9,315 nt of DNA from a virus (Duplodnaviria > Heunggongvirae > Uroviricota > Caudoviricetes). Positions 1 to 9,315 of this stretch are shown here, piece after piece (the first letter of the stretch is position 1; every line of letters starts with the position of its first letter). The translations under genes and the position numbers were made by a program. The notes under the pieces were generated by a model that did no database searches, was not told the DNA's origin, and was given only the letters and a program-made list of their open reading frames with translations. Where the stretch lies: IMG/VR virus record IMGVR_UViG_2778261463_000017, positions 1 to 9,315 of that record, one strand, 5' to 3'.

Positions 1-1242
1 ATGGCGAGAAAAACACACCCATTAACCACAGTGCAGATCAAAGCAGCCAGACCAGCGCAAAAGGAGTACACCCTGCAGGACGGCGGAGGGCTTTTTCTCC
101 TGGTCAAACCGTCTGGATCAAAACTCTGGAGATTTTCCTACTACCGACCATCGGACAAAAAAAGAATATTGCTGAGTTTTGGATCGCTTGAAGATGTTTC
201 CCTGGCTGATGCCAGAAAACGCCGTAGCGAGTACAGGACGTTAATCAGTGCCGGAACTGACCCGCAGGACCACGAGAGGCAAAAAAGAGAGACAGAGGCC
301 CGAAGACAAGGGAACACGTTCGAAAATGTGGCGGCGGCATGGTACCAGGTGAAAATCAGCCAGAATCTGGCCCCCAACACGATTAAAGACATCTGGCGTT
401 CGCTGGATAAATATGTATTCCCGTTCATCGGCAACACGCCAATAGATACCCTCACCGCCCGAAGGTTCGTTGAAGTGCTTACCCCCATCAAGGAGCGCGG
501 CAACCTGGAAACACTCAAGCGGGTTTTACAGCGCGTTAATGAGGTAATGGATTACGCCGCCAACAGTGGGCTGATTGATGCCAATCCGGCTATGAATGTG
601 CGTAAGGCGTTTCCCTCACCTGTAAAAAAACATATGCCAACAATCCGCCCCGAACAGCTGCCCGAGCTTATGCAGGCTTTATCAGTATCGGCAACAGAAC
701 GGCAGACCAGATTACTGATTGAATGGCAGTTACTGACCGTAACCCGTCCCGCCGAAGCGTCATCAACGCGGTGGGATGAAATCAACCTGGACGCGAAGCA
801 ATGGACGATACCTGCCGGACGCATGAAGATGCGCAGGGATCACGTTATCCCGCTTTCCGGTCAGGCTATGGCGGTGCTGGAGGCCATGAAACCAATCAGC
901 CACCACCGCAATTACGTTTTCCCAAGTCTGAAAGACCCACAGCAGCCGATGAACAGCCAGACAGCTAACGCAGCATTGCGGCGTATGGGATTCGCTGGCG
1001 TGCTGGTGTCTCATGGATTACGCGCCATATTCAGCACAGCAGCGAACGAGGAAGGATTCGAGCCGGACGTAATAGAGGCGGCACTTGCCCACGTCGACAC
1101 CAACGAAGTTAGACGGGCATACAACCGGAGCAACTACCTGGAAAAACGTGTAGTACTTATGCGCTGGTGGGGTGAATTTGTGGAAGCCGCAGCAACCGGA
1201 GTGACCATAGCCAGTGGTAAAAGGGGTATCCGTGCGGTGTAA
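1..1242 (+). CDS. int: P4-type tyrosine integrase (site-specific recombinase)
   Basis: 413-aa ORF starting MARKTHPLT...; the N-terminal block (KLWRFSYYRP...) and overall length are typical of P4/CP4-57-like integrases as I recall them. Full length from first base of window to TAA at 1240-1242. Confidence 0.9.
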   Translation: MARKTHPLTTVQIKAARPAQKEYTLQDGGGLFLLVKPSGSKLWRFSYYRPSDKKRILLSFGSLEDVSLADARKRRSEYRTLISAGTDPQDHERQKRETEARRQGNTFENVAAAWYQVKISQNLAPNTIKDIWRSLDKYVFPFIGNTPIDTLTARRFVEVLTPIKERGNLETLKRVLQRVNEVMDYAANSGLIDANPAMNVRKAFPSPVKKHMPTIRPEQLPELMQALSVSATERQTRLLIEWQLLTVTRPAEASSTRWDEINLDAKQWTIPAGRMKMRRDHVIPLSGQAMAVLEAMKPISHHRNYVFPSLKDPQQPMNSQTANAALRRMGFAGVLVSHGLRAIFSTAANEEGFEPDVIEAALAHVDTNEVRRAYNRSNYLEKRVVLMRWWGEFVEAAATGVTIASGKRGIRAV

Positions 1243-1355
1243 CTGTACAAAAAACCAGTACAACCAGTGCAAACCATGCTAAACCATCGTATAATCGCCT
1301 ATCTCCTCAACAGACAAGGAAAAACCCGACTCATGAGAAATCGAGATTTATTGAA

Positions 1356-1598
1356 ATGGTCTGGCACGAAAAATCATCCAATGTCTGCGGTGAAGGGCTG
1401 CAACTGGCGTTAATGGCAAATCGTGAATTCTGGTCAACATACGATCCGGAAGACAAATCAACAGCCCCCACAAAACACGAGGTAGTCAGTTTTTTACGCT
1501 CGCGTGGCGCATCGAAAAATCTGGCTGAAAGCATCGACAAGGTGCTGAGGCCCACCAGCCTTAAATGTGGTGGGCGACCTAAGAAGTGGAAACGGTAA
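1356..1598 (+). CDS. small hypothetical protein (start uncertain; ATG at 1416 is an alternative)
   Basis: 80-codon ORF with no clear Shine-Dalgarno, but it is followed within a few nt by a hairpin plus T-run terminator, which suggests it is a transcribed unit. No recognisable family. Confidence 0.35.
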   Translation: MVWHEKSSNVCGEGLQLALMANREFWSTYDPEDKSTAPTKHEVVSFLRSRGASKNLAESIDKVLRPTSLKCGGRPKKWKR

Positions 1599-1603
1599 TC
1601 ACA

Positions 1604-1634
1604 ATAGCGGCCCCTTGCGGTCGCTATTTTTTTG
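1604..1634 (+). terminator. rho-independent terminator
   Basis: Stem ATAGCGGCC / GGTCGCTAT around a CCTTGC loop, followed by TTTTTTT (1627-1634), directly after the stop at 1596-1598. Confidence 0.6.
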
Positions 1635-1666
1635 CAAAAAGAAAGCGTAATCAATGAGATAAAAAA

Positions 1667-1703
1667 CAGTGAGTACCGTTTTAAAACGGTGAGTACTGTT
1701 TTT
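1667..1703. promoter_or_regulatory. operator-like palindrome with flanking direct repeats upstream of alpA
   Basis: Perfect 16-bp palindrome ACCGTTTTAAAACGGT (1675-1690) embedded in a tandem direct repeat GTGAGTAC(C/T)GTTTT, about 65 bp upstream of the alpA start. Confidence 0.4.
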
Positions 1704-1767
1704 CCCGCCCTGCCCTGTTTTACCGTATTTATCACCGGAATACGCCGGATTAACGAGGTAAAACACG

Positions 1768-1974
1768 ATGGAAGTAATCAGAAAAATTCTTACCCGTCAG
1801 GAAGTAAAAAATATTCTGCGCATCAAGGCAGACAGTTCGCTACAGGACATGATCAACGCCGGAAAATTCCCGAAAGGCTTCAAAATCGGTCTGCGCCGTG
1901 TTGGCTGGTATGAAGATGAGGTGCAGGCCTGGTTGAAAGAACGCGAGGAAGAAGCGCGCGGAACGGCTGCGTAA
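1768..1974 (+). CDS. alpA: AlpA-family prophage transcriptional regulator (small HTH protein)
   Basis: 68-aa protein MEVIRKILTRQEVKNILRIKADSSLQDMINAGKFPKGFKIGLRRVGWYEDEVQAWL, a classic AlpA/phage-AlpA signature; GAGGT Shine-Dalgarno 8 nt upstream. Confidence 0.85.
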   Translation: MEVIRKILTRQEVKNILRIKADSSLQDMINAGKFPKGFKIGLRRVGWYEDEVQAWLKEREEEARGTAA

Positions 1975-2121
1975 TGGTGTGAGGTGTAACGCAATGAACA
2001 TAACAAAAAGCGCCCCGTTGCCGGAGCGCCCTTGTGAACAATTAACCTGCTGCGAAAAAAATGGATCAGTGCAGGGGAATTATATCAACCGTGTGACGAA
2101 GCGCCACAATTGCCGGATAAC

Positions 2122-2153
2122 AGGCAAAACAAAGGCCACCTGCTACGGTGGCC
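2122..2153 (-). terminator. candidate rho-independent terminator for the reverse-strand repressor gene
   Basis: Perfect 7-bp stem GGCCACC / GGTGGCC (2134-2140, 2147-2153) with a 6-nt loop; on the minus strand it is followed by TTTGTTTTG. Lies about 100 bp downstream of the stop at 2257. Confidence 0.4.
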
Positions 2154-2256
2154 ATTCGACACAAGCTACACGTTATCCCCAACGCAAGAGAGATGATTAC
2201 TATGCCGTGATTACATCCGGTTGGCAATGTGATCAGTGTGCTGGCTTGCTGGTGGG

Positions 2257-2562
2257 CTATTCCTGCTCTTTGGCTTTGCGCCGCTGGAGTTCTTCACGCG
2301 CAACGGCGACGAGTTGCCCGATCTCCTCGGCAGCTTTGACACCGATTTTTTCCACCTGCGCCAGTGCATCGAGCGAAGAAACCAGGGGATTTTCTCCTCT
2401 TCCTTCTGCCTGGCGGCGGGCGATCTCACCACGCATGGCGGTTACTATGAATCCGGCGTTGCTTTCGCCGTCCAGTTTTACGGATTCCATGCCATCAAAA
2501 GCATCATGTGGGATACGAATTGAAATCTGTTTTGATTTGTCGTTGATAGTGTTTTTTGCCAT
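2257..2562 (-). CDS. putative ribbon-helix-helix DNA-binding protein (candidate island repressor)
   Basis: 101 aa from MAKNTINDK...; the segment KQISIRIPHDAFDGMESVKL...NAGFIVTAMRGEIARR fits a beta-strand/helix/helix RHH pattern, followed by a charged helical tail. GGAGA Shine-Dalgarno 6 nt before this ATG. The longer 2257-2601 start is rejected because it has no spacing to the SD. Confidence 0.55.
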   Translation of the reverse strand: MAKNTINDKSKQISIRIPHDAFDGMESVKLDGESNAGFIVTAMRGEIARRQAEGRGENPLVSSLDALAQVEKIGVKAAEEIGQLVAVAREELQRRKAKEQE

Positions 2563-2584
2563 GTGCATTCTCCTAAACAAAATA

Positions 2585-2660
2585 TGTGATTCAGTATACA
2601 CAAAAAAGAATCACAAAAAATACTTGACCTGTGATTCAGTTGAATTTAATTTAAATCACA
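2585..2660. promoter_or_regulatory. divergent promoter/operator region between RHH gene and icd-like gene
   Basis: Two inverted-repeat pairs TGTGATTCAG...GAATCACA (2585-2615) and TGTGATTCAG...AAATCACA (2630-2660); a -35-like TTGACC (2624-2629) with TAATTT 17 bp downstream, overlapped by the second palindrome. Confidence 0.5.
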
Positions 2661-2685
2661 CCTCAGTAAGAGGATGTAAACGACA

Positions 2686-2719
2686 ACGCCCCGAACTGTT
2701 TGCGGCAGTAGCGGGGCGT
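2686..2719 (+). other. stable hairpin in the icd leader (candidate structured regulatory RNA element)
   Basis: 8-bp GC-rich stem ACGCCCCG (2686-2693) / CGGGGCGT (2712-2719) with an 18-nt loop containing an inner CTG/CAG stem; no T-run follows, so it is unlikely to be a terminator. Confidence 0.3.
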
Positions 2720-2755
2720 CTAACCACCAACGATAGCGAAAGTATCGAGGTAGCT

Positions 2756-2950
2756 ATGAGAAATCATACCACACACCCGCAAGGGCGGGACTCGCACAAC
2801 CTGAATAAATACATCTGGCGTTTTATCGCCCTGAGCACGGCACAACCGCGCGTGATTCACATCGTGGCCACCAGCGAACAGGAAGCGCGTCAGCAATCTC
2901 CTGATGGCTGCGTGATGGTATTGGCCTCCAGATTTCATCATCGCTGTTTG
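2756..2950 (+). CDS. Icd-like (host cell division inhibitor-like) small protein; 3' end undefined because the frame has no stop until 3988
   Basis: ATG at 2756 with GAGG Shine-Dalgarno; MRNHTTHPQGRDSHNLNKYIWRFIALSTAQPRVIHIVATSEQEARQQ resembles Icd-like proteins of P4-like elements as I remember them. Downstream of ~2950 the same frame becomes Cys/Arg/Ser/Phe-rich and un-protein-like, so the end given here is approximate, not a stop codon. Confidence 0.45.
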
Positions 2951-3132
2951 TTTTTTGTCTGTCTCTCCTCGGGGTATGGGGTTGTGCCGTTCCAGCGTAT
3001 GCGGGGCCGTTCACTGATGAAGCGCTCAAGCGGGAAATTATCGGATGGCGCGGGGGGCCGTACCCGTCGTTCCCGCCTCCGCTGGCGTACCACGCTGGCT
3101 TCGGTAATTTCCCCTGATTCGTTTATTTTCAT
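2938..3132 (-). CDS. small Arg/Pro-rich protein, paralogue A of a three-member mini-gene family
   Basis: 64 aa (MKINESGEITEASVVRQRRRERRVRPPAPSDNFPLERFISERPRIRW...); strong GGAGGT Shine-Dalgarno 8 nt upstream of ATG; shares the RRERR...PP.P...FPLE.FI..R.R pattern with the ORF at 3376-3546. Confidence 0.3.
   Translation of the reverse strand: MKINESGEITEASVVRQRRRERRVRPPAPSDNFPLERFISERPRIRWNGTTPYPEERQTKNKQR
3014..3033. repeat. dispersed direct repeat copy A (CTGATGAAGCGCTCAAGCGG)
   Basis: One of three copies of CTGATGAAN(3)CNNNAGCGG; 17/20 identical to copy C and 15/20 to copy B. Confidence 0.5.
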
Positions 3133-3175
3133 AAAGAGTTACCTCCGTGCTCATCTGCTCTGGCGTTTTCTGTTT

Positions 3176-3195
3176 CTGATGAAGACTTACAGCGG
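3176..3195. repeat. dispersed direct repeat copy B (CTGATGAAGACTTACAGCGG)
   Basis: 162 bp downstream of copy A (a multiple of 3); the most diverged copy, with a stop in the minus-strand reading. Confidence 0.45.
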
Positions 3196-3207
3196 TAGCG
3201 GCGTATC

Positions 3208-3324
3208 TTATTTTAAGATTTGGTTTAATTTCTCGTGTCTGGCTTTAATGACGGCGCGTAATAATATCTGTCGCTGCTTTGTGTTTACGTCCAGAACTGT
3301 GGGGGATAATATGGATTTGTTCAT
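3208..3324 (-). CDS. short ORF (38 aa), possibly a truncated paralogue B of the mini-gene family
   Basis: MNKSILSPTVLDVNTKQRQILLRAVIKARHEKLNQILK; AGGTGA Shine-Dalgarno 5 nt upstream of ATG; stops just before repeat copy B. Uses AT-rich codons (ATA, TTA), which weakens the call. Confidence 0.2.
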   Translation of the reverse strand: MNKSILSPTVLDVNTKQRQILLRAVIKARHEKLNQILK

Positions 3325-3375
3325 GGTGCTCACCTGTAATGCATTGCGTCGTGATGCCTCATATCACGGCGGCGG

Positions 3376-3546
3376 TTATCGTTTTGTTCGGATTCGTCCC
3401 CTGATGAAATCCTCAAGCGGAAAATGTTCAGGGCGAGGTAATTCAGGAGGGACAGGGTTATTACTCATGCGCTCACGTTCCCTTGCGGCGCGTGCAGCAT
3501 TCAGCTTTTGCAGGAGCACATCAAACGGCACCCCCTTATCATTCAT
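3376..3546 (-). CDS. small Arg/Pro-rich protein, paralogue C of the mini-gene family
   Basis: 56 aa (MNDKGVPFDVLLQKLNAARAARERERMSNNPVPPELPRPEHFPLEDFIRGRIRTKR); G-rich Shine-Dalgarno-like run before ATG; C-terminal half aligns with the ORF at 2938-3132. Confidence 0.3.
   Translation of the reverse strand: MNDKGVPFDVLLQKLNAARAARERERMSNNPVPPELPRPEHFPLEDFIRGRIRTKR
3401..3420. repeat. dispersed direct repeat copy C (CTGATGAAATCCTCAAGCGG)
   Basis: 225 bp downstream of copy B (a multiple of 3); differs from copy A at three adjacent positions only. Confidence 0.5.
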
Positions 3547-3700
3547 GGTCCCCCCTGTATATCCGTTGTTAACTGATGGTTACAGGTGCATTTTTCGCAC
3601 AAACTATTTAATCAACACATCCGACCACATTATCAGAGAGCCGGAATATACAGGGGCAATAATCCCGCATTTGCTGGCCTACGCACAGCTTACCGCTGAT

Positions 3701-3988
3701 ATGGCACTGAATGAGGCCAAAGCCATCCTGATTGCTGATTGTGAATATGGGGTTATGCGTGATGATCGTTTTAATGCCCTGAAACAGGAATTTGATGGCA
3801 CACCGGAAGATACAGATATTGCGCTGTTATGTGTTGCTGACATGGTAAAAGCTGCATGTTTTTTACTGGAAACCGCCGAACATTCAGGAACGGGTAGCGA
3901 TATTCTCAATATTGCGTCGGACTATGCTGAATATGTGGCAGAGGCGCGTTACAGAAGAAAATTCCAGGAGGTGGTTAGCCATGAATAA
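3701..3988 (+). CDS. hypothetical acidic protein, first gene of the replication operon (true start may be upstream)
   Basis: 95 aa (MALNEAKAILIADCEYGVMRDDRFNALKQEFDGTPEDTDIALLCVADMVKAACFLLETAEHSG...) with protein-like composition, unlike the upstream part of the same frame. No convincing Shine-Dalgarno at 3701; the stop overlaps the next gene's start. Confidence 0.5.
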   Translation: MALNEAKAILIADCEYGVMRDDRFNALKQEFDGTPEDTDIALLCVADMVKAACFLLETAEHSGTGSDILNIASDYAEYVAEARYRRKFQEVVSHE

Positions 3989-4181
3989 TCATGAAGCGCA
4001 CTTACCTGTAGTGCTTAATGTGCCATCTGATTATACGGGGCGCGTTTTGATATTCCTGGATAAAGGGAAAGTGAAATCGCAATGCCGCCTTAGAAATAAT
4101 GAGGTTATTGGTTCTCTGGCTTTTTTTTCTGAAGCCTGTATTCGCGCCGGAATAAAGCCGGAATCACTGACAGGAAAATAA
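3981..4181 (+). CDS. hypothetical small protein
   Basis: 66 aa from MNNHEAHLPVVLNVPSDYTGRVLIFLDKGKVK...; strong AGGAGGTGG Shine-Dalgarno; ATG overlaps the upstream stop (ATGAATAA), indicating translational coupling. The ORF-track start at 3912 is rejected. Confidence 0.5.
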   Translation: MNNHEAHLPVVLNVPSDYTGRVLIFLDKGKVKSQCRLRNNEVIGSLAFFSEACIRAGIKPESLTGK

Positions 4182-4185
4182 AACC

Positions 4186-4485
4186 ATGAAAAAGAAAAAT
4201 TCTGGCTTTACTGCCAGCGGCCCCGCTCGGCCTGAAATCCGTCCCGGCGATATTTTCCGTGATAACTACGGCGGTACGGTAACGATTAAAGGCGTGGCAG
4301 AACGGCGCATCACTTACCGCCGTGATGGCTACGAATATGACTGCGTGATGCCTGTTTATCAGTTCCGGCGTGATTTTTCTCTGGTACAGGCAGCGCCCCG
4401 CAGTAAACCAACCAGCAGGGAGAAAGCACGCGCCAATATTCAGAAGATGAAAACCATGATTAACGGATTCAGGGATAAAAAATGA
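4186..4485 (+). CDS. hypothetical basic protein (prophage-associated small protein of unknown function)
   Basis: 99 aa (..GDIFRDNYGGTVTIKGVAERRITYRRDGYEYDCVMPVYQFRRDFSLV..); AGGAAA 8 nt upstream; stop overlaps the primase start (ATGA). Family identity not established. Confidence 0.55.
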   Translation: MKKKNSGFTASGPARPEIRPGDIFRDNYGGTVTIKGVAERRITYRRDGYEYDCVMPVYQFRRDFSLVQAAPRSKPTSREKARANIQKMKTMINGFRDKK

Positions 4486-5897
4486 AACTGGCACCGAACT
4501 TAAAAAAACAGCCACACAACAAAATGACCGAAGTCATTATTTTTGCAGGTAGTGATGCCTGGGCGCACGCAAAACAATGGCAGGAACAGGACGGGCGACT
4601 TGCTGGCGATAACGTCCCGCCAGTATGGCTGGGAGACAGTCAGCTTGACGAACTGGCAGACCTGAAAATTATCGACGATGGTCGCTATTGTGTCCGGCTG
4701 TACAAGGCAGGCCACATCAAGCCATCAAATATTAATGCCATCGGGCAAAAACTGGCGGCGGCAGGTGTACGGGATGCGAGTTATTACCCCGAGGGAATGC
4801 ACAGCCAGAAGCGGGAGGAATGGCGCGACTACCTGCAACGGATCCGCGAACAGGCAGAGCGCGGGGAAATACTTACTGATGAGCAATACAGCCAGCGAAA
4901 AACCACGCTACCCATGAGCATTGGATCTGCAGGATACGACACACAGCTTGATTATGTCGTTAAGGGCGTGATTCCGGCTAATTCATTGTGCAGCACATAC
5001 GGTGCGAGCGGTTCCTATAAATCATTCCTTGCGTGTTCCTGGGCGTGTCATGTTGCCACGGGGCGCCACTGGGGAGGCCGCAGGGTGGCGCATGGTTCGG
5101 TGATGTATGTTGTCGGTGAAGGTGGCATTGGTGTCCCCCGTCGTATCAAGGCATGGGAAATCGTTAATGATGAACGGGTGAAAAATCTGTACCTGGTAAA
5201 CCGCCCGATTTTTCCGGCAGCCCCGCTTGATGTTGATGAAATGGTTATCGCTTCCCGCCAGGTTGAACGGGAAACGGGTAAACCGGTACGCATGATTATT
5301 CTGGATACGCTGGCGCGTTGCTTTGGCGGTAATGATGAAAATGACGCGCGGGATATGGGGGCGTTTATCCGTGGATGTGACGACCTGAAACGACGCACAG
5401 GGGCCACGGTGCTGGTGGTCCACCATTCCGGCAAGGATGAAACAAAGGGGGCGCGTGGTTCCAGTGCATTTCGTGCATCTCTGGACGCTGAATACCGTAT
5501 TCGCCGAGAAGGTGCAGACAGTAAAGCCCTGGTTATATCCTGCACCAAAATGAAGGACGCGGAGGAACTGAAAGAGGCCGCCTACGATTTACGCGTGGTG
5601 GAGCTTTTTACCGACGCTGACGGGGAGTTAATCACGTCGCTGGTGGTGGTGGATAAGCCGCGCACTCCCGTTGAACTGGAGCGCATCGAGGAGGCAGGCA
5701 ACAAGACGGAAAACCATACCGCGCTATGGCAGTGCATCAGAACGCGAACAGCACACGGGGAGGCGTGCACTATCGCCCTTCTCCGCGACGATATGAAAAA
5801 GCTGGGGTATGAGATGAAGCACTTCCGGCGCTGGCTGTCCAAGCTGGAAAAAGACGGCGTGATTTGTGTCGATGGGGATGATGTTTACCCACTGTAA
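4482..5897 (+). CDS. replication initiator: primase-like N-terminal domain fused to a RecA-like AAA ATPase (PICI pri-rep type)
   Basis: 471 aa; Walker A GASGSYKS, Walker B-like MIILDTL, and an HHSGKDETKG block typical of RepA/DnaB-like AAA ATPases; AGGGA Shine-Dalgarno 6 nt upstream; iteron array immediately downstream. Confidence 0.85.
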   Translation: MKLAPNLKKQPHNKMTEVIIFAGSDAWAHAKQWQEQDGRLAGDNVPPVWLGDSQLDELADLKIIDDGRYCVRLYKAGHIKPSNINAIGQKLAAAGVRDASYYPEGMHSQKREEWRDYLQRIREQAERGEILTDEQYSQRKTTLPMSIGSAGYDTQLDYVVKGVIPANSLCSTYGASGSYKSFLACSWACHVATGRHWGGRRVAHGSVMYVVGEGGIGVPRRIKAWEIVNDERVKNLYLVNRPIFPAAPLDVDEMVIASRQVERETGKPVRMIILDTLARCFGGNDENDARDMGAFIRGCDDLKRRTGATVLVVHHSGKDETKGARGSSAFRASLDAEYRIRREGADSKALVISCTKMKDAEELKEAAYDLRVVELFTDADGELITSLVVVDKPRTPVELERIEEAGNKTENHTALWQCIRTRTAHGEACTIALLRDDMKKLGYEMKHFRRWLSKLEKDGVICVDGDDVYPL

Positions 5898-6098
5898 AAA
5901 GTGGGTAGTAAAAGTGGGGAGAGTGGGGAATTTAACAAAATTGAAACATAATTCCCCACTTTCCCACCTGTATACATCCAAAAAAGTGGGGAGTAAAAAA
6001 CGCAATGAAAAACAAAGCATTAGATTCACTCAAAAAACGAGGTGGGGAGCAAGTGGGGAATTTAAAAAGTGGGGAGCAAAAGTGGGGAGTGGTGGGGA
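5898..6098. repeat. iteron-type replication origin (GTGGGGA repeats flanking AT-rich spacers)
   Basis: About ten copies of GTGGG(G/T)A in direct orientation (5901, 5914, 5923, 5986, 6032, 6043, 6069, 6082, 6092) and two in inverted orientation (5952-5968), with an 18-bp unit AGTGGGGAATTTAA(C/A)AAA present twice and an A-rich segment 5993-6030. Confidence 0.7.
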
Positions 6099-6350
6099 AT
6101 GAACAGAAAAACCAGAGATAAGACAGCGCCAAAATATAAAGCGTTAGACATGACAGAGCACGCCTTAAAGGTGGCAATCAGAACGATAGACCGCCACGCC
6201 GGAGAAGGATACGCGAAAGCACATCCCGAACTGATAAGTGCATTCATGACCACAGCGGCGGCAAACTTTGCCACGCTGACAGAACGGGAGATTGCCGAAG
6301 CAGAACAGGTAACAACCATCAATGTTAAAACCGGAGAGCAGACAGCATGA
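6099..6350 (+). CDS. hypothetical small protein (start uncertain)
   Basis: 83 aa from MNRKTRDK...; stop overlaps the ssb start (ATGA). The putative start sits inside the last iteron, so the start is insecure. Confidence 0.45.
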   Translation: MNRKTRDKTAPKYKALDMTEHALKVAIRTIDRHAGEGYAKAHPELISAFMTTAAANFATLTEREIAEAEQVTTINVKTGEQTA

Positions 6351-6757
6351 CAGCACAGATAGCGGCTTACGGGCGGCTGGTGGACGACCCGCAGACAAAA
6401 CAGACCAGTAAGGGTACACCGATGACGCTGGCGCGTATGGCGGTATCTTTACCATGCGGCCAGGCACAGGACGGACAGGCGACGTTATGGTTATCGGTCA
6501 TCGCATTTGGCAAACAGGCCGACTTTCTGGCTAAACATCAAAAAGGCGACGTTGCCAGCGTATCCGGCACGATGCAGGTCAGCCAGTGGACCGGACAGAA
6601 CGGGGAAACGCGGCAGGGTTATCAGGTCATTGCAGACAGTGTAATCAGTGCCCGTGCTGCACGTCCTGGCGGGAGCAGACGCACAACCACAGGCACACAG
6701 GGGAATAAGCCACCAGCGGGAGGCGATGACCCTTACGGTGATGATATTCCGTTCTGA
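6347..6757 (+). CDS. ssb: single-stranded DNA-binding protein (SSB)
   Basis: 136 aa; OB-fold-like N-terminus (GRLVDDPQ..., WLSVIAFGKQADFL, QWTGQNGETRQGYQVIADSV), a Gly/Pro-rich linker and the acidic C-terminal tail ending DDIPF characteristic of bacterial/phage SSBs; GGAGAG Shine-Dalgarno. Confidence 0.8.
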   Translation: MTAQIAAYGRLVDDPQTKQTSKGTPMTLARMAVSLPCGQAQDGQATLWLSVIAFGKQADFLAKHQKGDVASVSGTMQVSQWTGQNGETRQGYQVIADSVISARAARPGGSRRTTTGTQGNKPPAGGDDPYGDDIPF

Positions 6758-6767
6758 GGGGGTGACG

Positions 6768-7040
6768 ATGGTACATGACCGGATAGCGGAGGAACTGGAG
6801 GCGAAAGGATTTTACCGGAGGGCGGCGGCGCGATGGGGTGAAGTTATGTGGCTGGTGAGCACTGACAAGGAGCGCGAACAGGTGGCAATGCGACGGCTGG
6901 AATGTTCCCGGAAGGCACAGAGGCCACCGGAGCCGCCGGATGATTTAGGCGCTCTGAAAAGGTCAGTTAATCGCACTGAAAAACAAATGGGGATAGCTGG
7001 TATTGGCAAAGCAATATGGCGCAACTACCCGCAGAAGTGA
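6768..7040 (+). CDS. PerC-family transcriptional regulator-like protein
   Basis: 90 aa from MVHDRIAEELEAKGFYRRAAARWGEVM...; this N-terminal motif resembles PerC/Pch-type prophage regulators as I recall them; GAGGGGG Shine-Dalgarno. The ORF-track start at 6648 overlaps ssb and is rejected. Confidence 0.55.
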   Translation: MVHDRIAEELEAKGFYRRAAARWGEVMWLVSTDKEREQVAMRRLECSRKAQRPPEPPDDLGALKRSVNRTEKQMGIAGIGKAIWRNYPQK

Positions 7041-7046
7041 GCACAC

Positions 7047-7071
7047 AGCCGGAGCAATCCGGCTTTTTTAC
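7047..7071 (+). terminator. rho-independent terminator ending the replication/regulatory operon
   Basis: Hairpin AGCCGGA-GCAA-TCCGGCT followed by TTTTTTA, 7 nt after the PerC-like stop. Confidence 0.65.
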
Positions 7072-7081
7072 GCCTAAAAAA

Positions 7082-7114
7082 AGCCCGATAAGGTCACAGG
7101 GGGCTTATCGGGCT
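7082..7114. terminator. second hairpin, possibly a bidirectional terminator
   Basis: 11-bp stem AGCCCGATAAG / CTTATCGGGCT flanked by AAAAAAA upstream and TTTTG downstream. Confidence 0.4.
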
Positions 7115-7196
7115 TTTGTATACGAGGTTTTTTATGGTGCACTGACACACATGATCGGGATAATCATTTCATAATTTGCAACGTAACTCAATATTG

Positions 7197-7224
7197 TTGC
7201 GCAAAATGCAATCATGATTATAAT
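7197..7224 (+). promoter_or_regulatory. candidate sigma70 promoter of the capsid operon
   Basis: TTGCGC (7197-7202), 16-bp spacer, consensus TATAAT (7219-7224); the -35 lies in a palindromic TTGCGCAA. Confidence 0.45.
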
Positions 7225-7228
7225 CAGG

Positions 7229-7246
7229 ACTGGATGAACATCCAGT
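7229..7246. promoter_or_regulatory. operator-like palindrome just downstream of the -10
   Basis: ACTGGATG-AA-CATCCAGT: 8-bp perfect inverted arms with a 2-nt centre, starting 5 bp after the TATAAT. Confidence 0.4.
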
Positions 7247-7280
7247 TATGATTTTTTAAGTCAAAGAGGAATTTCTGACT

Positions 7281-7487
7281 ATGGCAGAAGAGAAAAAAGG
7301 CGGGGTGACGGTCTACATAAGCCCCGACATCGTGGAGGCGCTCAAGGAACGCCACCAGCAGAATGTAAAAGCAGGCATTGCGGCAGGACTTGATCCGCTG
7401 GCGATGGTTGAGCCGTCAACAGGCTGGCAGGTGCGCACCTATTTACGTGCGGCGCTGGGTATCAATCAGGTTCACGGAGGTGAATAA
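7281..7487 (+). CDS. small hypothetical protein, first gene of the capsid operon
   Basis: 68 aa (MAEEKKGGVTVYISPDIVEALKERHQQNVKAGIAAGL...); AGAGGA Shine-Dalgarno; its TAA overlaps the capsid gene ATG by one base (TAATG). Confidence 0.5.
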   Translation: MAEEKKGGVTVYISPDIVEALKERHQQNVKAGIAAGLDPLAMVEPSTGWQVRTYLRAALGINQVHGGE

Positions 7488-8542
7488 TGACAGGCAAAGC
7501 AACGGCACTTACAACTAACCAGCTTTTCGCGTACCTGAATCGCGGGGATATTGCGGATTTTAAATTCAGCCCTCTGTTTACCACGCTGTTTTTCCCGAAC
7601 GTGGCGACCTTCAACACCCAAAACATCATGCTGGACACCCTGGACATTGAAGAGGTTACGATGTCAGCGTTCTGTTCGCCTATGGTGGGTAGTCAGGTCC
7701 AGCGCGATAAAGGGTACGAAACCAGCACGATTAAACCCGGCTACATGAAGCCAAAGCACGAAATCGATCCAACAAAGACCATCATGCGCATGGCTGGAGA
7801 AGATCCGGCACAGCTTAACGATCCAACTTACCGCCGTATGCGCCTGATTACTGGCAACATGCGCCGCCAGATAAACGCCATTAAGGCGCGCGTGGAATGG
7901 CTGGCGGTGAATGCGGTAACGACCGGAAAAAACATCATTGAGGGCGAAGGCATAGAACGCTATGAAATCGACTGGAAAATACCGGAAAACTGCATCATAC
8001 AGCAGGCCAGTGGTAAAAAATGGTCCGAGCAGGATAAAGACATGCACGACCCAATCTATGACATCGAGCTTTATGCTGATCAGGCAGGTTGCCCCGCCAA
8101 CGTCATGATTATGGGCGGTGAGGTATGGCGCACATTACGCAGCTTTAAAAAATTCCGTGAACTGTACGATCTTTCGCGTGGCTCAGAATCCGCCGCCGAG
8201 CTGGCCTGTAAAAACCTGGGCGAAGTGGTGAGCTTTAAAGGCTATCTTGGTGATCTGGGCCTTATCGTCTATTCCGGCAAATACACTGACAGCGACGGCA
8301 CCGAAAAATATTTCCTTGAGCCTGATTTGCTGGTCCTGGGTAACACCAACAATAAAGGGCTGGTGGCCTATGGTGCGATTATGGATCAGGAAGCGGTAAG
8401 AACGGGCGCAACGCAAAACATGTACTACCCGAAAAACTGGATTGAGGACGGCGATCCGGCGATTGAGTACGTGCAGACGCACAGCGCACCGCAGCCGGTA
8501 CCGGCAGATATTCGCAAATTTGTTACCGTCAAAATTGCTTAA
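7487..8542 (+). CDS. lambda gpE-like major capsid protein (HK97-fold MCP family)
   Basis: 351 aa; colinear similarity to lambda gpE as I recall it (KFxPLF..LFF near the N-terminus, PGYMKPKHE, RRMRLI..NMR, KWSEQDK, RSFK, GSESA, VSFKGYLGDLGLIVYSGKY, VLGNT, YPKNW..GDPA); strong GGAGGTG Shine-Dalgarno. Confidence 0.85.
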   Translation: MTGKATALTTNQLFAYLNRGDIADFKFSPLFTTLFFPNVATFNTQNIMLDTLDIEEVTMSAFCSPMVGSQVQRDKGYETSTIKPGYMKPKHEIDPTKTIMRMAGEDPAQLNDPTYRRMRLITGNMRRQINAIKARVEWLAVNAVTTGKNIIEGEGIERYEIDWKIPENCIIQQASGKKWSEQDKDMHDPIYDIELYADQAGCPANVMIMGGEVWRTLRSFKKFRELYDLSRGSESAAELACKNLGEVVSFKGYLGDLGLIVYSGKYTDSDGTEKYFLEPDLLVLGNTNNKGLVAYGAIMDQEAVRTGATQNMYYPKNWIEDGDPAIEYVQTHSAPQPVPADIRKFVTVKIA

Positions 8543-8553
8543 CGGGGGATTCT

Positions 8554-8889
8554 ATGGACGCTCCATACATTGAGTTATTTTCAGGCAGCCAGCAGGTATC
8601 CACGACGCTGGTACATTTTGCCGCTGATGCTGGCGTTATTCAGGAATTTACCCCGCTGATGCTGGCAGACAATGGCGAGTTTAAGGCGTGGGATGGTCAG
8701 GAATCTGGCAAAGCTGTTTATCTGACTTCGCACCCCGTGGACACGTCAAAGCAGAAATCAGCACAGTGTTACAAAACGGGGATATTCAATATTGCCGCCG
8801 TTAACTGGCCTGATAGCGTCGACACCGATGCGAAAAAATGCGCCGCCTTTGCGGGTTCCGGCGTATCCGTTCAGCCGCTGGCCCGATAA
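8554..8889 (+). CDS. lambda gpD-like head decoration protein
   Basis: 111 aa; PLMLADNGEFKAWDG, YKTGIF, VNWPDSVDTDAKKCAAFAGSGVSV parallel the gpD blocks PLMLD..AWDG, YKSGTF, WPEA..ETKKRTAFAGTAISIV. Confidence 0.7.
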   Translation: MDAPYIELFSGSQQVSTTLVHFAADAGVIQEFTPLMLADNGEFKAWDGQESGKAVYLTSHPVDTSKQKSAQCYKTGIFNIAAVNWPDSVDTDAKKCAAFAGSGVSVQPLAR

Positions 8890-8901
8890 GCAGGGGGAAC
8901 G

Positions 8902-9315
8902 ATGGCAACGAATGAAAGTATCATGACGCTACCGCTGGCGAGTAAATTTAAAGCCGAAGCGCGGGCAATGGCTGACAGAGGTTTATCAACCTACGAGGCC
9001 ATACACCGACTAAACAAACTGGAAGAACAGGACAAGCCGCGCGCTGATGCGATTATGGCGCTTCATGAATCTGACGACTACCAGCCGCTGTTACGTGCAA
9101 TGGCTAACGTGCCTTGTATCGATGTTGGTACGGCTAAAAGCATCCTTAGCATGACCATAGAGCAGGAACGCCCGAAGGTTGCACCAGAGCTTACTTCAGC
9201 CTTTGAAAACTTTATGGACATGCACAGCCCGAAAGCCGTATCAGCTGGCATGGCATACGATGGCAGAAACCCGGGCGATGACGGCGACATCGATCACATA
9301 CTGAAAACCATCTGA
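8902..9315 (+). CDS. hypothetical protein downstream of the decoration gene
   Basis: 137 aa with AGGGGGAA Shine-Dalgarno, ending TGA at the last bases of the window; composition is protein-like (charged, helical N-terminus). Function not recognisable. Confidence 0.55.
   Translation: MATNESIMTLPLASKFKAEARAMADRGLSTYEAIHRLNKLEEQDKPRADAIMALHESDDYQPLLRAMANVPCIDVGTAKSILSMTIEQERPKVAPELTSAFENFMDMHSPKAVSAGMAYDGRNPGDDGDIDHILKTI

Follow-up and report, generated by a model that had tools for sequence, protein, structure and literature searches.

What do three small genes placed immediately before a replication initiator contribute to the mobile element that carries them? The question is raised by a 9.3-kb DNA sequence assigned to the Caudoviricetes (IMG/VR record IMGVR_UViG_2778261463_000017, positions 1 to 9,315; this entire stretch is referred to here as the window), in which three open reading frames (ORFs), genes 1 to 3, lead into the gene for a replication protein (Rep). 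Judging from its gene order, the window is a phage-inducible chromosomal island (PICI) of Escherichia coli, of the EcCICFT073 type. An original prediction, made from the letters of the sequence alone, described the three genes as a tightly coupled set without recognizable domains and as candidate helper-exploitation factors. Our analysis instead separates them into two modules. Gene 3 is a new allele of a known and experimentally studied family, DUF4222/RgdR, genes 1 and 2 belong to small uncharacterized PHROGs families, and the satellite itself is of a known kind. The reading that we tentatively favor, at somewhat less than an even chance, is that gene 3 is a replication-initiation accessory made together with the initiator, that the changes its relatives cause in host gene expression are a side effect of a basic protein that binds DNA, and that genes 1 and 2 are early cassettes that an island may carry or lack.

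The view that none of the three products has a recognizable domain proved wrong for gene 3. Profile searches matched its residues 16-68 to DUF4222 (PF13973) with 88.8 bits, against a gathering cut-off of 27 (E 1.7e-25). Aligned over all 99 amino acids with no gaps, the product has 75% identity (E 1e-54) to RgdR, the ECs1581 protein of E. coli O157:H7 Sakai, which is encoded on island OI-51/Sp7 of this enterohemorrhagic E. coli (EHEC); it is 74% identical to C1493 of EcCICFT073. Both of these orthologues are likewise 99 amino acids long and collinear with gene 3, with a conserved core at residues 20-68, and the tail residues 61-86 of gene 3 are identical to those of ECs1581. Residues 20-22 read PGD and not the RGD that gives the family its name; close relatives have PGD or NGD at this position. 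The gene is under purifying selection, with a ratio of nonsynonymous to synonymous substitution rates (dN/dS) of 0.22 against a related island (L003) and 0.31 against CFT073.

Structure prediction with AlphaFold2 (AF2) places a five-stranded SH3/KOW-like barrel at residues 21-68 (predicted local distance difference test score, pLDDT, of about 90) between a disordered N-terminus and a basic helix at residues 77-98. The net charge of +12.5 resides mainly in the N- and C-terminal tails. Foldseek returned generic and weak relatives of the barrel only, among them the Spt5 KOW domain, a single-stranded-DNA-bound PWWP domain, an integrase C-terminal domain, and DUF1653-like phage proteins, and a sequence-profile search of the PDB gave nothing significant for gene 3. 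RgdR and C1493, the two members for which regulatory activities are known, activate the LEE1 operon in the enterocyte effacement locus (LEE) and type III secretion, repress motility, and raise Congo-red binding (Flockhart et al., PMC3378721). RgdR binds DNA without sequence specificity, is active when supplied on a plasmid to a strain from which the entire island has been removed, and is modulated in its activity by residue 20 of the RGD motif (PMC3378721). The literature cites the protein as a regulator of type III secretion in EHEC that a prophage encodes, a description that leaves aside its role within the element that carries it.

The position of gene 3 suggests what that role might be. 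Its TGA (ORF 4186-4485) overlaps the ATG at 4482 of the Rep ORF (4482-5897) as ATGA, and because the stop of one gene overlaps the start codon of the other, gene 3 and Rep are probably translated together, presumably by translational coupling. To follow this junction, we used 160 IMG/VR loci with a gene 3 orthologue, drawn as two overlapping sets ranked by similarity to the window and thus a biased sample. In 155 of these loci, the stop of gene 3 shares exactly 4 nt (ATGA) with the start of the ORF that follows it, counting ORFs of at least 80 amino acids. All of the downstream proteins open with the same N-terminal domain as Rep (RepN), which continues into bodies of the D5_N-DUF5906-Pox_D5 type (89 and 14 loci, in two subtypes), the AAA_25 type (50 loci), or the DUF927 type (4 loci). 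RepN itself was present in 79 of 80 loci and has no family match in Pfam or the PDB. When loci were picked reciprocally by RepN, a DUF4222 gene lay directly upstream in 77 of 78, with the ATGA geometry in 73 of 78. The same overlap is found in Sakai (ECs1581/ECs1582) and in CFT073, where the gene 3 orthologues occupy the same site before the island replicase; that replicase is of the DUF927 type in Sakai and of the D5 type in CFT073, compared with AAA_25 in the window. The name "primase" given to the window protein does not hold, as Pfam finds AAA_25 alone and the NCBI Prokaryotic Genome Annotation Pipeline (PGAP) calls it "helicase RepA family protein". The tight coupling with the initiator that had been claimed for all three small genes is thus borne out for gene 3 and not for genes 1 and 2.

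Ordinary temperate phages, for which there is no helper to exploit, also have DUF4222 genes before their initiators. Among temperate siphophages, tblastn identified a 59-amino-acid DUF4222 ORF in Escherichia phage vB_EcoS-733R5 (PF13973, E 8e-19) that shares 11 nt with the beginning of the "replication protein O" gene. Phage-type DUF4222 genes overlap the downstream initiator gene by 11-38 nt in 80 of 80 IMG/VR loci, and these initiators are of three types, HTH_36/DnaD_N-like or containing Phg_2220_C. The phage ORFs resemble gene 3 in having the same Pfam domain and in overlapping the start of an initiator gene. They differ in consisting of the barrel core only (about 40% identity over the core), in being roughly neutral without basic tails, and in preceding initiators that are not RepN-helicases. 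A third subtype of 79 amino acids is located just upstream of xis/int at the ends of lambdoid prophages (L330-L409). DUF4222 genes therefore regularly stand before, and in most cases overlap, genes whose products bind DNA and assemble nucleoprotein complexes, mostly replication initiators. We did not find this near-invariant overlap in satellites and phages reported in the searchable literature, nor any paper there connecting DUF4222/RgdR to replication. Its recurrence at hundreds of satellite and phage loci, before unrelated types of initiator, provides a concrete hypothesis for the native function of the family that could be tested in EcCICFT073.

Two further observations concern the distribution and annotation of the family. 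The CFT073 genome has at least two DUF4222 paralogues in different mobile elements, one of them a lambdoid prophage copy (L004, 15192-15431). The DUF4222 ORF of vB_EcoS-733R5 (GenBank ON470608; L168, 2980-3159, and also L169) is unannotated in GenBank, where a hypothetical coding sequence on the opposite strand (2938-3225) is given instead; that coding sequence is probably spurious. A scan of genome contigs with patterns derived from the gene 3 alignment, which were too narrow, recovered one locus.

Genes 1 and 2 behave differently. Their coordinates and junctions agreed with the original prediction when checked against the sequence: the TAA of gene 1 (ORF 3701-3988) at 3986-3988 gives an 8-nt overlap with the ATG of the gene 2 ORF at 3981-4181 (ATGAATAA), and gene 2 is followed by a 4-nt spacer and the ATG of gene 3 at 4186. 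All three ORFs are also genuine genes, as indicated by purifying selection (dN/dS 0.14-0.32) and by the recurrence of the ATGA overlap between gene 3 and Rep. The three do not, however, form a fixed set. Among 72 related islands, the core of gene 1 is present in 14 (19%), gene 2 in 17 (24%), and both in 5, whereas gene 3 and RepN are near constant. The stretch from the Icd-like leader ORF, with which the operon opens, to the DUF4222 gene occurs as 97 distinct sequences of 350-1500 nt, and its ORFs are arranged in at least 26 ways. Another PICI (L002), which lies beside cspD, a different attachment site, and has a D5-type Rep, differs from the window by two substitutions and one indel over the block 2936-4178, which comprises an insertion described below and genes 1 and 2. 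The flanks differ by 8-9% (16 of 180 positions in the Icd-like ORF and 24 of 297 in gene 3). The near identity of this block between diverged flanks shows that, in this lineage, genes 1 and 2 have been transferred jointly as one cassette, apart from gene 3 and Rep. Genes 1 and 2 are optional, interchangeable cassettes in a mosaic slot and constitute a module distinct from gene 3 and Rep.

The corresponding slot of EcCICFT073 holds four small ORFs (L005, 7050-7940) in an overlapping chain, a layout like that of the window. ORFs 2 and 3 of this chain are homologues of the N-terminal half (49% identical) and the C-terminal half (54% identical) of gene 1, separated at the same poly-G site. EcCICFT073 thus has the two halves as separate genes and an extra first ORF (phrog_1478), and in the place of gene 2, which it lacks, it has an unrelated ORF (phrog_2196). 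The window, unlike EcCICFT073, contains an insertion of about 700 bp and a fused, truncated gene 1. In the searchable literature, we found neither a description of the interval as a cassette-shuffling slot nor a paper that gives functions to the small ORFs of EcCICFT073. The stretch between the Icd-like and DUF4222 genes of Gram-negative PICIs is a sensible place to seek helper- or host-directed factors; together with the overlap of DUF4222 and initiator genes, it is a moderate, testable lead rather than a surprise.

Gene 1, as first delimited, consists of the final 18 codons of an N-half gene joined to the whole of a C-half gene. Most homologues of its 95-amino-acid product are annotated at 154-155 amino acids, and in L003 and EcCICFT073 the same sequence forms two overlapping ORFs, an N-half of 73-79 amino acids ending in CENGGGYA before its stop and a C-half of 73-77 amino acids starting with MRDDRF. 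A profile search of 1.84 billion representative proteins recovered only 60 clusters, most of them stand-alone N- or C-halves of about 75 amino acids, from which it follows that the two-gene state is general and the fusion derived. N-half proteins stand alone in diverse relatives. The N-half remnant of the window is 88% identical to residues 34-75 of the 79-amino-acid N-half of L003. The start proposed at 3701 is doubtful: this ATG aligns with an internal methionine of the N-half, and all invariant columns of the family, and thus the conserved core, lie from the methionine at 3755 onward. The C-half is 54% identical to the EcCICFT073 ORF at L005 7484-7705, with a dN/dS of 0.32 at a dS of about 1. 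Gene 1 is, by this comparison of its parts, a truncated N-half gene fused to an intact acidic C-half gene. No relatives of the gene 1 products were found in Pfam, NCBIfam, PADLOC, or PDB sequence-profile searches, and the isolated N- and C-halves had no NCBIfam match either.

Whether the halves are separate depends on a poly-G tract at their junction. In 33 distinct contexts, the tract has 4, 7, 8 (the mode), 9, 10, or 11 G; lengths of 8, 9, and 11 give two ORFs, and lengths of 4, 7, and 10 give one fused ORF (154 amino acids). The tract is located at 3746-3749 in the window (G4, hence fused), at 5124-5131 in L003, and at about 7474 in L005. The differences in length could be phase variation or homopolymer sequencing error.

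Gene 2 has only 32 homologues among 5.8 billion proteins, nearly all of them in Escherichia, and a dN/dS of 0.14 against L003. The sole phage relative that tblastn searches gave belongs to a series of small early-left ORFs between the repressor and xis/int of a Klebsiella phage that is temperate. The AF2 model of gene 2 is of low confidence (pLDDT 68.9, with other models at about 50), and neither Foldseek, which gave no fold match, nor a PDB sequence-profile search, which gave nothing significant, assigned it to a family. As a separate observation, positions 4121-4128 within gene 2 are a run of T8; the corresponding run is T7 in island L002, which is 96% identical, and PGAP flags the gene 2 copy of L002 as a frameshifted pseudogene.

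The satellite phage P4 offers a parallel to this arrangement. The left operon of P4 has an Icd-like "cI" ORF, epsilon (which acts in helper derepression), ORF151, ORF106, and alpha, and its small genes, like those of the window, form an overlapping series placed between the Icd-like/cI region and the replicase. The ORF of P4 annotated as "cI gene product" (L087, 8171-8584) matches NF033153 over its C-terminal 48 residues (E 8e-21). With an Icd-like domain in this ORF, the PICI early operon and the P4 left operon share the same leader/replicase layout with unrelated small ORFs. ORF106 is presumably cnr. Cnr is a small protein that modulates the replicase and acts on alpha in copy-number control. 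ORF106 differs from gene 3 in belonging to DUF5375 and not DUF4222, and in being separated from alpha by 14 nt between its stop and the alpha gene, with no overlap. Neither profile comparison with hhalign nor a tblastn search of the phage collection, which gave no match in P4, related genes 1-3 to epsilon, ORF151, or Cnr. Two candidate homologies were rejected. An hhalign probability of 22% (24 columns) between the gene 1 family and epsilon fell to 0.8% with a diverse N-half profile and is attributed to chance, and gene 3 gave no hhalign match to ORF106. Confident homology to a replication accessory such as a helicase loader, which the original prediction had named as evidence that would count against helper exploitation, did not appear for genes 1-3 in profile searches; none of the three matched a known accessory, such as DnaC, lambda P, or a DnaD/DnaB-like protein, in Pfam, NCBIfam, PHROGs, or PDB sequences.

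How, then, might the two modules work? In the first, gene 3 and the initiator would be produced jointly, and gene 3 would assist in assembling or tuning the complex of initiator and DNA at the origin of the island, through either DNA binding by its basic tails or binding of the barrel to a conserved surface of the host or of the initiator. The logic would be like that of P4 Cnr on alpha, with unrelated sequences, and the effects of RgdR on LEE1, motility, and Congo-red binding would be spill-over of nonspecific DNA binding. The replication role is suggested by the association of DUF4222 genes with initiator genes, and several points weigh against it. No experiment or homology connects DUF4222 with replication, and no Foldseek match for gene 3 reached E <= 0.001. 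RgdR acts from a plasmid in the island-deleted strain, hence without Rep (PMC3378721), and the 79-amino-acid subtype lies beside xis/int and not beside an initiator. The neutral charge of the phage-type proteins, which lack the basic tails, suggests that DNA binding may not be the conserved activity. Co-variation of gene 3 and RepN was considered as a sign of contact and dropped, since their divergences are weakly correlated (Spearman 0.12-0.27) and, of the gene 3 pairs that are nearly identical, about one in four stand beside RepN domains at least 35% divergent, which argues against a specific lock-and-key contact. The main alternative is an explanation in which gene 3 is chiefly a host-directed transcription modulator (a "moron"), possibly antagonizing H-NS-type silencing, and its place before Rep just ensures early expression. 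The set of RgdR phenotypes appears to resemble loss or relief of H-NS silencing, and the weak co-variation with RepN also speaks for this explanation. The phenotypes and nonspecific DNA binding of RgdR and C1493 when they are expressed alone, even in the island-deleted strain, are also in its favor (PMC3378721). We nevertheless regard it as unlikely, because the ATGA overlap is kept in 155 of 160 islands with four Rep types and 80 of 80 phage loci keep a DUF4222/initiator overlap, an arrangement for which a regulator acting by itself would have no need. In addition, the family occurs in commensals and in phages of hosts without the LEE (PMC3378721), and the window has PGD for RGD at residues 20-22, a position that matters for activity. 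A wider proposal builds on the replication-accessory reading: DUF4222/RgdR would be an unrecognized class of SH3-like factors, co-translated with initiators in enterobacterial PICIs and phages, that build or control the initiation complex, with virulence regulation by RgdR as a by-product and the upstream slot as a hotspot of helper- or host-directed effectors. We consider this possible, though on balance not probable.

Genes 1 and 2, as the second module, would most likely encode small protein-binding modulators of host or helper targets, because this is typical of variable early genes in temperate elements. The more specific idea of the original prediction, that they serve to exploit the helper by sensing, derepressing, or interfering with it as P4 epsilon does, seems improbable to us. 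It draws on the shared position in the P4 left operon, on the hypervariability of the slot, which may reflect the arms races that often produce such patterns, and on the small, acidic gene 1 products (pI 4.5), which are like many protein-binding inhibitors. Speaking against it are the lack of similarity to epsilon, ORF151, and Cnr noted above, the lack of any PADLOC match for genes 1-3, the occurrence of gene 2 relatives in the early-left region of an ordinary temperate Klebsiella phage, and the absence of gene 2 from EcCICFT073, which is mobilized by lambda and phi80 (PMC6092414). A further alternative concerns gene 1 of the window, which may have partly degenerated, its N-half being truncated and a clear ribosome-binding site absent; this also counts against treating it as a working cassette. 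Taken to its end, the argument would make gene 1 a decaying remnant, with its N-half destroyed and the operon cut from its promoter by the insertion, so that 3701-3988 is poorly expressed or nonfunctional. The N-half is indeed truncated and its start replaced, no Shine-Dalgarno sequence was seen on reading the sequence before 3701 or 3545, a consensus scan of 3547-3700 found no sigma-70-like promoter, and the insertion carries opposite-strand ORFs and is a rare variant (10 of 5426 genomes). Against decay, the C-half is intact and 95% identical to functional-looking copies, the frame is still open, and the block of insertion, gene 1, and gene 2 has lately spread almost unchanged between two PICI backbones; gene 2, gene 3, and Rep are intact downstream, where transcription is required for island replication. 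We therefore think that gene 1 is probably not a mere remnant, and give this explanation little weight.

The identification of the element as a PICI agrees with the earlier placement of the three genes in the early/replication operon of a phage satellite; this operon runs from the Icd-like leader ORF to the replicase. The window has the gene order of EcCICFT073, the prototype Gram-negative PICI, which we located in the CFT073 genome (L005): int, alpA, a YlcI/YnfO-like gene, the Icd-like ORF, small ORFs, DUF4222, Rep, the single-stranded DNA-binding protein (SSB) gene, PerC, capsid, and decoration (Table 1). The features of a PICI are present, namely int, alpA, a replication module, and packaging/capsid-related genes on an island of about 10 kb at a tRNA or dedicated attachment site. 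In EcCICFT073, induction of a helper phage switches on AlpA, which activates island genes including pri-rep (PMC6092414); this AlpA-dependent, helper-induced expression and mobilization has been demonstrated for EcCICFT073 only (PMC6092414). Segments 100% identical to window positions 3500-4600 are present in five complete E. coli genomes, and in E. coli strain 135 the identical segment lies inside an island adjoining tRNA-Pro, between yejM and yejO. When positions 12676-13260 of this closely related strain 135 island (L001) are compared with window positions 7040-7281, the island has a ProQ/FinO-family gene between PerC and the capsid module that is absent from the window, as are about 240 extra bases near int. 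The missing gene and bases make the window a distinct variant of the strain 135 island.

Table 1 Features of the 9.3-kb window and the evidence attached to them.
Feature	Position	Strand	Match or remark
Tyrosine integrase	1-1242		
AlpA-type regulator	1768-1974		
YlcI/YnfO-like gene	2257-2601	minus	
Icd-like leader ORF, opening the operon	2756-2935	+	NF033153 phage_ICD_like, E 3.8e-15, at 2810-2935
Insertion/replacement of about 700 bp, removed 5' part of N-half	~2930-3625		Rare; 10 of 5426 complete E. coli genomes
ORFs of the insertion, in one shared frame	2938-3132, 3208-3333, 3376-3546	minus	No family match
N-half remnant, C-terminal ~42 codons, in frame, includes ATG 3701	3626-3754	+	phrog_5146 / N part of phrog_2512
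Gene 1 as first delimited, 95 aa, pI (isoelectric point) 4.5	3701-3988	+	phrog_2512, positions 60-153 of 154
Gene 1 conserved core (C-half), 77 aa, MRDDRF..., acidic	3755-3988	+	phrog_24341
Gene 2, 66 aa, pI 9.2	3981-4181	+	phrog_340, distant relative, E 1.7e-18
Gene 3, 99 aa, pI 10.4	4186-4485	+	PF13973 DUF4222; orthologue of RgdR/ECs1581 and C1493
Rep, 471 aa	4482-5897	+	
RepN, N-terminal Rep domain of ~130 aa	4482-4874	+	61% identical to N-terminus of EcCICFT073 D5-type replicase
Rep catalytic part, AAA_25 (RepA/DnaB-like) helicase	4875-5897	+	PF13481, E 8.4e-44, residues 152-320
SSB	6347-6757		
PerC	6768-7040		
Lambda-E-like major capsid protein	7487-8542		
Head-decoration protein	8554-8889		

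The insertion that separates the leader from gene 1 is largely without relatives. Neither it nor its minus-strand ORFs had Pfam or PHROG matches; two of these three ORFs share a 31-nt repeat (3008-3038 and 3395-3425), and a 58-nt segment at 3333-3390 is 84% similar to genes for "ash family protein". A plus-strand frame of 669 codons runs without stops from 1979 to 3988, and in the genomes of relatives PGAP gives this frame as one protein of 410 or 595 amino acids, under the name "host cell division inhibitor Icd-like protein". The NF033153 domain lies outside gene 1, at 2810-2935, about 770 nt upstream of 3701. The identity of gene 1 as an Icd cell-division inhibitor, implied by the PGAP name, was rejected, as the domain is not within the gene 1 coordinates. 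The middle of the 1979-3988 frame is antisense to the minus-strand ORFs and reads like noncoding translation. Automated annotation is unreliable in this region, as seen in the 410-595-amino-acid "Icd-like" calls, the unannotated DUF4222 ORF in the phage record, and the labeling of Rep as a primase.

The Icd-like leader of the window is 88% identical to the Icd-like protein of EcCICFT073, and in relatives it ends near 2935, overlapping the start of the next small ORF. A search of the Icd-like region and its vicinity with Rfam for an immunity RNA of the c4/CI type gave only a sub-threshold isrD-like terminator at 2128-2170. Operator-like repeats are present between the divergent YlcI/YnfO-like gene and the Icd-like ORF (2575-2660). 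The repeat TGTGATTCAG occurs at 2575-2584 and 2630-2639, with the inverted GAATCACA at 2608-2615, and these repeats flank a TTGACC hexamer at 2624 that resembles a -35 element. The repeat region is likely the control region of the operon that holds genes 1-3.

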